63,890 bases of DNA, filler included, from an uncultured Methanosarcinales archaeon (GCA_964434475.1; 7 parts of 7 records of this genome joined end to end with filler, not necessarily neighbours in it), one strand, 5' to 3'; numbered from the whole stretch's first letter, positions 18,001 through 21,000 are shown. Numbers are program-made.

Positions 18001-21000
18001 TAATGTACTAAAGTTAGATAATAACATAAGAGGAATAATCCCTGAAGAAATCGCCCTCAACCATATAAAATTAGGCATTATACCCAAAAGATCTAAAACA
18101 AAAATAATTGATAACTTTCTTCTCAATAGATAAACTAAAAAGACTTCGTTCGAATACGGACGGGCTAAATAATTAAAATTATAGAAAATATAGCCCCGCA
18201 CGGATTCGAACCGTGGTCCACGCCTCCAAAGGGCGTGATGATTGGCCACTACACCACGGGGCTGTGTGTGTTACAATCAGAGATTAAATACTTTCTTTTA
18301 AAGTTTTTGGTTTTTCAATGAACAAGTACACAAGATAAGCGCTCGACGAAGAAATCGAAACATTTATATACCTGCTAACATAATATCGTCTAAAAAACTA
18401 CCTTAAAAAGGAGGGATTAAAAAAATGGCAAAAAAAGTAGCAAAAGTTGGAGTTAAAAAAGACCCTACTTGCTTATACTTCGTGGACAAAAACGGAGACA
18501 TCTCTTGTGCAAAGATGGCAAGAGGCGGAAAAAAAGGCGGAAAAGCAAAAAAAGTTGAAAAAGTAGGCATCAAAAAAGAAAAAGGATACTTGTATTTCGT
18601 CGACAAGCAAGGAGACATTTCATGCGCTAAAATGTCTAGAGGCGGAGTAAAAAGAAAGAAAAAGAAGAAAGCTGTAAAAAAGAAAAAAGCAGCTAAGAAG
18701 AAGCCTAAGAAAAAAAAAGCAGCTAAAAAGAAACCTAAGAAGAAGAAAGTAGCTAAGAAGAAACCTAAGAAGAAGAAAGCAGCTAAAAAGAAACCTAAGA
18801 AGAAGAAAGTAGCTAAGAAGAAACCTAAGAAAAAGAAAGCAGCTAAAAAAAAACCTAAGAAGAAATAAGTAATTCTTTAATTTTTATTTTTTTATAATTT
18901 TTTTAACCGATTATAGGATATGACTTATAAGATAACAACCTATTCGCAAAGCCTTCTCCAAACCTAAAGAAAAAGTTATCTGATTTTCCAGATATGAAAT
19001 CATAAAATGTCTTTTCTGTGTTATATTCATAAATACTTACTTTTGCCAAATCATGCTTGTCTTTTATGTACTGCTCTGCTGTTTCTATATTGCCGAATTC
19101 GTCTATCAATCCTTTCTCTTTTGCCTGTATACCTAATAAGATAGAGCCCTCTGTCTCTTCTATGCTTTCTATACTTATGTTCCTGTTCTTAGCGACCATC
19201 ATAACAAAGTAATCATGCGCCATGTCGAGCTGCTTCAGAATCATTTGTCTTTCATCTTCATCCAGCTGCCTGAAAGGACTTCCCATATCCTTATGATCTG
19301 CTGACACTAATCTTTCGTAAGTTATGTTGTATTTGTCCAGGAATCCTGAAAATTCTAGATAACTTGATATGGCTCCTATGCTTCCGGTTATAGACAGCTC
19401 ATCTGCAATTATATGATCGCATGCTGAAGCTATTAGATAACCTGATGAAGCTCCTACCTCTCTTATAACAGCTACTGTTGTTTTGTTGATCAGTTTAATC
19501 TTCTGTGCTATCTCTTTACCTGCAATAGCTGTTCCACCAGGAGAGTTTATCTCAAATATTATCGCTTTTACAGCAGGATTTGATTCAGTATCATCTATCC
19601 ATTGCAATATATTATCAGAATAGCTTAATCTGGTCCCAAACTGTTCAATCCCTTCACTAACCAATGTTCCTTTTATTGGAATTACTGCAACATTCCCTAT
19701 ATTCCTGCTTGCTTCATAGGTAGATGCAAATATCCAAGAAGCCAGCCAAAGAACTACCAACAACATAATTATATAGACATATTTATTTCTCTTAATACTA
19801 ACATTTTTTGTTGTTTTCTTTTTCATGGCTCAAGCACCTTTTGTTCTATCAAAGATATATTGCTCAACTTTTCCATAAATCTTTTGTTTGTAAAAAGTAC
19901 ATACAAAGGATCTATGATCCATAATATGATTACAGGAAAAACCGGCAAAAAAGTAATGTTACTAAATAGTACCCTCCAAAAACTTAGTTCTAATTTAGTG
20001 GAAGATTTGATATAAATCCCTAAAAACATCTTACCTATGGTCTGATGAAACTTAAATTCCATAATAGTAAAATAGATTATCATAAGTACGAACATAAATA
20101 TAAAAACCACATATAATGATTGGAACATTGCAGGATTGCTATTAAGAAATTGCGAAGACTCCGTATAAGTCATATCTTTAGGAACTATCCTATAGACCAA
20201 CTCTTTCAAAGGAGAAAACACAATAATGTCAAGGATTAGTACGTCGATGATAAAAGCCAGTAGTCTTTTGAAAACAGAACATTCAACTTCAACTACCTTA
20301 CCTCTTTTTTTTCTTGACATCTTATTTATTGTTTATTTTATGGTTTAAATAAGTTTCTATTGAATAAAAAACGGGTTCATCCGGAAAAGAATAAATATGT
20401 ATACTGAATACTAAATTGCGAGGTGTTCAGCCATGCAAAATATACTCAGTATACAAGAAAATAAGTTACATAAGGATATTATTAAACTTTGTCATTTAAT
20501 GGAGCTTCCATTAAACTATAATCACAAAGGTCCTAAGTTTTTTAAGAGAACTTTGCATAATTGCTGTTTAGCTTAGCTTTTTAGATTAATTGCACANNNN
20601 NNNNNNNNNNNNNNNNNNNNNNNNNNNNNNNNNNNNNNNNTTAATTAATTAANNNNNNNNNNNNNNNNNNNNNNNNNNNNNNNNNNNNNNNNNNNNTTTA
20701 TAAACCAACTTGATCAAATAAATTTTGCAGAATTATCGAATTTCACATTTTTTAAATGAATATTGGCTAAAACTTACTTATTTTACTAAATATCTTTGTA
20801 AAAAAAATTAGTGAACTTTATCAGCAATTATATTTGTAATTATAAATCGACTTTCAGCAATAATATTAGTAAAGATCATATATGTATGTCTTGCAGTGAA
20901 CAAGACTGTTTCTACAGAGCCTACTAACCGTAAGTTTTATATATCGCATAAAAATTCTATGGCAGTTATGGGAAGAATAAAAACAAAATTGATAAAACGG

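Follow-up and report, generated by a model that had tools for sequence, protein, structure and literature searches.

A widespread, unnamed family of small basic beta-repeat proteins of archaea and bacteria: candidate nucleoid-associated proteins

The window (the entire DNA stretch analyzed, 63,890 nt, from the genome of an uncultured archaeon, designated G000) carries a gene for a small, very basic protein whose relatives form a real, widespread and unnamed family; the reading that fits best is that of a novel type of nucleoid protein whose functional class is already known. We consider it probable (roughly 0.6) that its members are abundant nucleoid-associated proteins (NAPs), which bind double-stranded DNA without sequence specificity and overlap HU in function; we infer, rather than show, their high abundance, their binding to DNA, the part played by the R-G loops and the dimerization of single-repeat members. 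Newly found here is a tendency of the family, in two bacterial phyla, to occur where HU-type genes are missing.

The gene, its expression signals and the predicted fold

The gene corresponds to G000:C47:7934-8377 and is the only match in this genome (Table 1). Lysine and arginine account for 72 of its 147 residues, i.e., the 49% given in the genome-wide survey's note, and the tail of the KKKKAAKKKP type, put there at about 70 residues, was counted as 73 (51 K, 11 A, 6 P, 4 V and 1 R). The same note described two 37-residue repeats: there are indeed two, but each has 34 residues and the period is 39. Public contigs of one sequencing run, possibly the one behind the window, match the gene at every base but break inside the tail array, and therefore the exact number of tail units is not bridged. 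A genome of the same genus encodes a similar tail of 62 aa. Between the two cores, 23 synonymous and 9 non-synonymous codon differences were found among 74 codons, which indicates purifying selection on the gene. Lysine-rich patches are common in G000 (26 of 1629 ORFs).

Table 1. Features of the basic-protein gene and its surroundings in the window
Feature	Position	Strand	Remarks
TPM-domain, zinc-finger and LemA gene cluster	16351..17886	-	upstream of tRNA-Gln
tRNA-Gln(TTG)	18191..18263	-	divergent upstream neighbor
BRE/TATA-like element, putative archaeal promoter	18351..18370	+	TTTATATA at 18363-18370; read from the sequence against the consensus
Shine-Dalgarno (SD) site, strong	18410..18415	+	duplex -13.4 kcal/mol, top 0.8% of the 1217 ORFs of at least 100 aa in G000
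Gene for basic protein	18425..18868	+	147 aa, pI about 10.7, 16.4 kDa; purifying selection versus same-genus copy
Repeat 1, residues 2-35	18428..18529	+	short strand, long GVKK loop, YLYF-DKxG-DIS beta-hairpin, M-x-R-G loop
Repeat 2, residues 41-74	18545..18646	+	26/34 residues identical to repeat 1
K/A/P tail, 73 aa	18647..18865	+	6.2 copies of a 30-nt unit at 18680-18864 (89% match); no secondary structure in full-length model; optional in the family
T-rich tract past the stop, putative archaeal terminator	18874..18906	+	sequence; similar tracts behind most archaeal relatives (by eye)
S17e and Alba genes	20896..21468	+	on the next contig, past an N gap, and so no neighbors of the basic-protein gene

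Since the tRNA-Gln gene upstream is divergent and the next gene downstream, encoding an S49 peptidase, is convergent, the gene is a single-gene unit in the window. Its SD duplex compares with -9.3 and -9.1 for the two histone genes of G000 and -9.8 for its Alba gene. Across the family, the median duplex was -11.05 for 28 archaeal genes versus -4.0 for 179 neighbors, and -15.0 for 53 bacterial genes versus -4.3 for 270 neighbors; the neighbors were allowed the best of 25 starts, the ORFs were called by a simple script, and the scores refer to a generic anti-SD motif that we assumed and did not take from G000. Such sites would point to high protein abundance and do not separate DNA from RNA binding; strong SD sites are also typical of ribosomal and other abundant proteins. 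A sigma-70/hairpin scan, ill-suited to archaea, gave results at chance level, and no RNA dataset containing the gene was listed by a sequencing-run search.

The model of the 74-aa core (pLDDT 94.1, pTM 0.80) contains six strands, three per repeat, and no helix, in agreement with the all-beta domain of the earlier note (pLDDT 91). An alignment of 761 repeats revealed the conserved elements K-V-x-K-x-G-(V/I)-K, G-(Y/F)-L-Y-(F/Y)-x-D-K-x-G-D and M-x-R-G, the central positions being fixed by the search pattern; in the M-x-R-G loop, present in each repeat, R is conserved in 87% and G in 76% of the repeats. A calcium-binding DxDGD reading was rejected, as the third position is variable (Q 39%, D 16%, N 16%). 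For a single-repeat protein (residues 1-40, 8-row alignment), prediction of a two-copy complex scored 0.23, short of the 0.42 mark.

For the 147-aa protein, Pfam gave nothing below E 0.15, and no family reached the cut-off in Pfam (130 members), NCBIfam (45 members) or PADLOC; the best E value among PDB sequences was 0.17, which is not significant. The survey's note had called the family unannotated, with no Pfam domain among 120 listed relatives; as a caveat, one of 120 rows listed by a divergent-profile search carries a precomputed PF27482.1, an entry absent from the Pfam library scanned. The structural claim was reproduced: in the VIA fold search, 54 of 48,161 chains reached Z>=2 and none Z>=5, the best (a beta-propeller; rmsd 3.8, 55 aligned) having Z 2.7 (2.8 before), while Foldseek gave no match at E<=1e-3 in PDB or BFVD and VIA over its 273 chains a best Z of 2.6. 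No sequence hit to a known ribosomal protein was obtained in Pfam, PDB sequences or NCBIfam, and the ribosome chains listed by VIA (Z 2.1-2.6, rmsd up to 8.9) do not rise above noise. This lack of a clear fold match does not prove a new fold.

Other resources were equally uninformative. In the Atlas, three clusters came up at 0.93-0.94, all without a name or a shared Pfam family and with recognition below the bar, and PHROGs gave only short weak hits to families of unknown function. NCBIfam BaiB (32 of 45 members, best E 3.8e-5) and the name '20S proteasome' on two JGI members were dismissed as short chance matches; apart from that proteasome label, names in the cluster look-ups were 'hypothetical' or absent. 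A literature search, with few subscription papers in its range, listed no paper describing the family, and a family without a name is difficult to retrieve by text search.

Distribution, genomic context and fusions

Of 2763 candidates, 2735 proteins match the family at E<=1e-3. At 50% identity there are 1181 representatives, of which 445 reach E<=1e-10, and a divergent-profile search gave 4126 members among 8000 scored. It occurs in 155 of 201 genomes (77%) of the window's own phylum, the same share as in the smaller set of the survey (47 of 61 Nanobdellota genomes). The phyla of genomes G201, G202, G203 and G205 are named only via the title of the centre locus. In that of G202 (Elusimicrobiota-centred, with an Endomicrobiellum-titled locus) 80 of 81 genomes carry the family, 78 of these with one match; the proportions are 28/81 and 13/41 in the bacterial phyla of G201 and G203, respectively, and 3/3 in that of G205. 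Named records belong to Woesearchaeota/Nanobdellota, Omnitrophota, Elusimicrobiota, Fidelibacterota/Marinimicrobia and Auribacterota. Labels like Planctomycetales and Methanosarcinales were also seen, on loci with the gene order of the groups just named.

The gene is nearly always single-copy per genome. Core identity between archaeal (28) and bacterial (53) loci is 60-78% (5th-95th percentile; median about 68%), figures biased upward because the loci are best matches to the query, and close to the 60-80% proposed earlier. This housekeeping-like retention in the G202 phylum and the window's own, together with the identity across domains, supports the nucleoid reading.

Most relatives are 73-100 aa long. 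Forms of 40-75 aa with one repeat and a lysine tail are found in archaea and bacteria as well as on viral contigs, and other forms contain three to ten repeats, which identifies the 34-residue unit as the building block. Tails range from 0 to 76 aa in the family; over 81 loci the median is 7 aa, with tails of at least 30 aa in 10 and at least 60 aa in four, in both domains. Family genes were found at 11 loci on viral contigs, and no match was detected in 50,697 phage records or among 72,556 plasmids. The settings on the viral contigs (L085-L087, L088, L091-L092, L001) vary: before JAB-/ThiF-like genes (by eye), on a 430-kb contig, as the single-repeat form, or within a glycosyltransferase-like cluster.

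No operon revealed the function. At Omnitrophota-type loci, dapB-dapL-panC-nadX-like genes lie before the gene and uvrA behind it (29-34 of 82 loci; gene names assigned by eye); at many Omnitrophota-titled loci it lies 20-60 nt past a gene of the same orientation and could be the last of an operon, and archaeal loci are typically single-gene units. A small HTH_17 gene is conserved upstream at Elusimicrobiota-type loci (12 of the 94 loci examined: L016, L023, L028, L034, L051, L055, L066, L071, L241, L243, L245, L246). Near the archaeal genes, HerA/Mre11-like genes and oapABC are often found (5-8 loci each); in several Woesearchaeota-like genomes (loci L024, L029, L031, L035, L047, L049 and L079), the gene lies beside oapABC (origin-associated GTPase, OapB, OapC) and HerA/Mre11-like genes. 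One genome of the G202 phylum has four near-identical type IV pilin-like genes (by eye) behind its family gene (L242:2838-5000).

Fusions to domains that act on DNA, which may be taken as support for the nucleoid reading, involve Mrr (P0271, P0308), HNH (P0256), a PDC-S18 nuclease-like domain (P0172), ResIII helicase/PLD (P0302), ParB (P0324) and a D5-like regulator (P0182); TIR and HTH-type regulators are also among the partners. The commonest partners among 68 long relatives, however, are HIT (15), DoxX (5) and HEAT (3), not DNA enzymes, and there are fusions to nitroreductase, OmpA and large membrane proteins with 4-5 domain copies; some long forms look like frameshift read-throughs. Taken together, the fusions would fit a portable nucleic-acid-binding module and do not single out DNA.

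Several fusion proteins have further features. HIT proteins of Woesearchaeota-like genomes (L100:1428-2378, L101:1496-2506; the 15 of 68 above) end in a copy of the domain and adjoin a second HIT gene, and domain-less HIT proteins also occur in such a pair (L108). In P0204, P0216, P0248 and P0249 the domain is joined to an unnamed basic C-terminal region (about 90 aa) for which Pfam, PHROGs and the Atlas gave no match. P0123 and P0292-P0294 are large proteins with several two-repeat domains in the C-terminal part, and P0123 has predicted-looking membrane segments.

HU/IHF, histone and Alba genes in carrier genomes

All 81 genomes of the G201 phylum carry an HU/IHF-family gene. A second copy is present in 0 of 28 family-positive versus 33 of 53 family-negative genomes, and the difference persists among genomes of up to 2.2 Mb (0/28 versus 16/31). 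The single copies that were read (15 of 28 carriers) are IHF-type, while the extra copy is HU-type in the two-copy genomes that were read (10 of 33). In the phylum of G203, an HU-type copy was found in 2 of 13 carriers versus 20 of 28 non-carriers, five weak or partial copies being left unread. A control family, the cold-shock domain, showed no such pattern in the G201 phylum (25/28 carriers versus 50/53 non-carriers). That carriers in these phyla mostly have no HU-type gene is a lead replicated in two phyla, and no proof. The tendency of bacteria to keep either the family or HU would follow from the proposed functional overlap.

In a phylogeny-aware analysis (a quick rpoB tree with 70 of 81 genomes for the G201 phylum and a 93-column IHF tree with 38 of 41 for that of G203), two and three independent pairs, respectively, lay on supported branches. 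On average 1.8 and 2.3 pairs went in the expected direction and about 0 against it, and each sign test had a median p of 0.5. With only five supported independent pairs, and kin not being independent, the HU pattern is not significant. Exceptions to the exclusion are G407 with four HU-type copies, G400 with a marginal one and G366 with an HU-like one. All 80 carriers of the G202 phylum have one or two divergent HU/IHF-family genes beside the family gene; of 20 such copies that were read, 18 were nearer to the HU-type than to the IHF-type custom profile, though 10 of 11 scanned with NCBIfam were nearest to IHF-alpha. The family-negative genomes lacking a second copy (20/53, G201 phylum) or an HU-type copy (8/28, G203 phylum) may use another nucleoid protein, or the gene may be unassembled.

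Among the 201 genomes of the window's own phylum, 122 have both the family and a histone, 33 the family only, 36 a histone only and 10 neither; complementarity with histones in archaea was looked for and not found (presence independent, Fisher p=1). Alba was found in 164 of the 201 genomes.

Proposed function, alternatives and relation to known proteins

As we envisage it, two copies of a 34-residue beta unit, arising from tandem duplication in most members and presumably brought together through homodimerization in the single-repeat ones, would give a small, pseudo-symmetric basic domain. This domain would contact double-stranded DNA through conserved lysines and the two M-x-R-G loops, without sequence specificity, and the optional lysine tail (0-76 aa) could add charge neutralization, bridging and the compacting effect that K/A/P tails have on HU, Hlp and Ku (PMC3553676). 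The protein would be made in large amounts. Criteria for NAP candidates given in PMC7613761 include small size, a single-gene unit, high abundance, and DNA binding with enrichment in the nucleoid. The protein, with 147 aa, lies within the size limit stated there (<290 aa); the single-gene unit fits the window and the archaeal loci, with many Omnitrophota-titled genes possibly operon-terminal; and for the abundance listed in that text the very strong SD sites are a proxy only. The survey's proposal of a candidate chromatin protein is thus strengthened by the SD sites, single-copy retention, the HU pattern and the DNA-domain fusions, with DNA binding still something we infer.

The main rival, which we regard as unlikely, is a role in RNA binding through a conserved aromatic strand and basic loops, whether in or on the ribosomes of particular lineages or as an RNA chaperone. 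The family is small, basic, all-beta and conserved, with strong SD sites; its invariant Tyr/Phe residues could stack on bases, and ribosomal-protein-like ORFs of G000 (by eye) also have lysine-rich patches. However, no conserved linkage to ribosomal-protein operons was found among the 45 commonest neighbor clusters of 82 loci, and an rplY/pth-like block (by eye) lies near the gene in only three Endomicrobium-titled loci. Its patchy presence in the phyla of G201 and G203, the median identity across archaea and bacteria, and the absence of exclusion with cold-shock proteins also argue against it, and no RNA-binding domain is among the fused domains that could be named (several accessions are unnamed). 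A substrate common to archaea, bacteria and viruses suits DNA better than a domain-specific ribosome. Distinctly unlikely, in our estimate, is a general polyanion-binding tether (for DNA, RNA, polyphosphate or acidic lipid) on enzymes and membrane proteins, whose stand-alone form has no special chromosome role. The promiscuous fusions (HIT, DoxX, HEAT, nitroreductase, OmpA, multi-copy membrane proteins) and the lysine-rich patches on many unrelated ORFs of G000 would fit such a tether, but the conservation of the stand-alone form, its retention in the G202 phylum and the HU pattern would be left unexplained.

The survey's note had also suggested a linker-histone-like architecture, and an analogue whose core binds archaeal histone-DNA complexes, which the tail condenses, would be compatible with the two histones of G000, a tail resembling K/A/P repeats and the 122 genomes having both genes. 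The globular domain of H1 is a winged helix, whereas the family core is all-beta, with no Pfam hit; the likeness lies in the K/A/P-rich, low-complexity C-terminal tail, which has no secondary structure in the family model. Most tails are short (10 of 81 loci reach 30 aa), cores are near-identical in bacteria, and gene presence does not depend on histones, 33 carriers having no histone match. We therefore find such an analogue most improbable; linker-histone likeness is weak as a family trait, and the H1 analogy fits the tail of a minority. The bacterial H1-like proteins Hc1/Hc2 and AlgP likewise share the K/A/P-rich tail and differ in the same respects as H1.

Under the preferred nucleoid reading, the nearest functional relatives would be HU/IHF proteins (PF00216, including the tailed Hlp/HupB and HupS), to which the family may be likened as small, basic, presumably abundant proteins with a putative two-fold symmetric unit. 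HU has a helical dimer body with beta arms, while no helix was modeled here (pLDDT 94); there is no PF00216 hit for the protein or the 130 members, and the family also occurs in archaea that have histones and Alba. An optional K/A/P tail is shared with some HU lineages, and PMC3553676 describes tails of this kind on Hlp, HU and Ku, among other unrelated DNA-binding proteins.

The family's M-x-R-G loop recalls, as a short motif only, the AT-hook-like Q/RGR loops of H-NS/Lsr2 and the GyrA-box, to which the family gives no hit. Cren7, Sul7d and CC1 are beta-rich, non-specific DNA binders, small and basic like the present proteins, which differ in being built of two sequence repeats, in occurring in other taxa and in having no Pfam or PDB sequence match. 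The three are absent from the fold-search matches listed, though a remote likeness may exist. PMC7613761 gives these crenarchaeal NAPs as 56-64 aa long with a pI of 9.7-10.

The same paper describes a Methanomassiliicoccales NAP candidate (WP_019177984.1/AGI86273.1; 74/70 aa, pI 9.6-9.9) that is lysine-rich, without a known domain and with a predicted novel fold, makes up 1.34% of a proteome and is only nominally nucleoid-enriched (PMC7613761). The bulk properties are similar, but its reported relatives belong to other taxa (Methanomassiliicoccales, Methanomicrobiales, Sphingomonadales, Rhodobacterales, Alteromonadales and Flavobacteriales), of which a single Cryomorphaceae-named member alone was seen within our named family hits. 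Identity of the two families is, in our judgment, unlikely.

The main chromatin proteins are HU in bacteria and histones in eukaryotes, while archaea use varied NAPs, as summarized in PMC7613761. A broader scenario, which we put forward tentatively and consider rather doubtful as a whole, is that the family is a third cross-domain chromatin family beside the histone and HU folds. It would have a fold new to the PDB, a beta-hairpin repeat dimer; it would have replaced HU several times in bacteria, be a core gene of Elusimicrobiota and a principal non-histone chromatin protein of Nanobdellota archaea, have repeatedly grown H1-like tails, and have been borrowed as a DNA-binding module by viruses and defence nucleases. 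If the family can take the place of HU, it would represent a new DNA-packaging solution common to DPANN archaea and several bacterial phyla and, if true, would bear on genome packing in small-celled symbiotic lineages. The phylum with the family in 80 of 81 genomes presumably has cultured members (Elusimicrobium minutum, Endomicrobium proavitum), and with a core of 74 aa the idea is directly testable; the family doubles as a marker at the level of phyla and as a target for structure determination.

Finally, a second gene of G000 (G000:C62:2422-2742; L239:923-1243, minus strand) apparently encodes a tail-only protein of KKKKAAKKKPA repeats, with a repeat unit almost the same as that in the tail of the 147-aa protein. 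The SD site of this gene is strong (-11.7), a TATA-like box is present, and the frame seemingly runs past an N gap. We take the gene product to resemble the stand-alone bacterial H1-like proteins.
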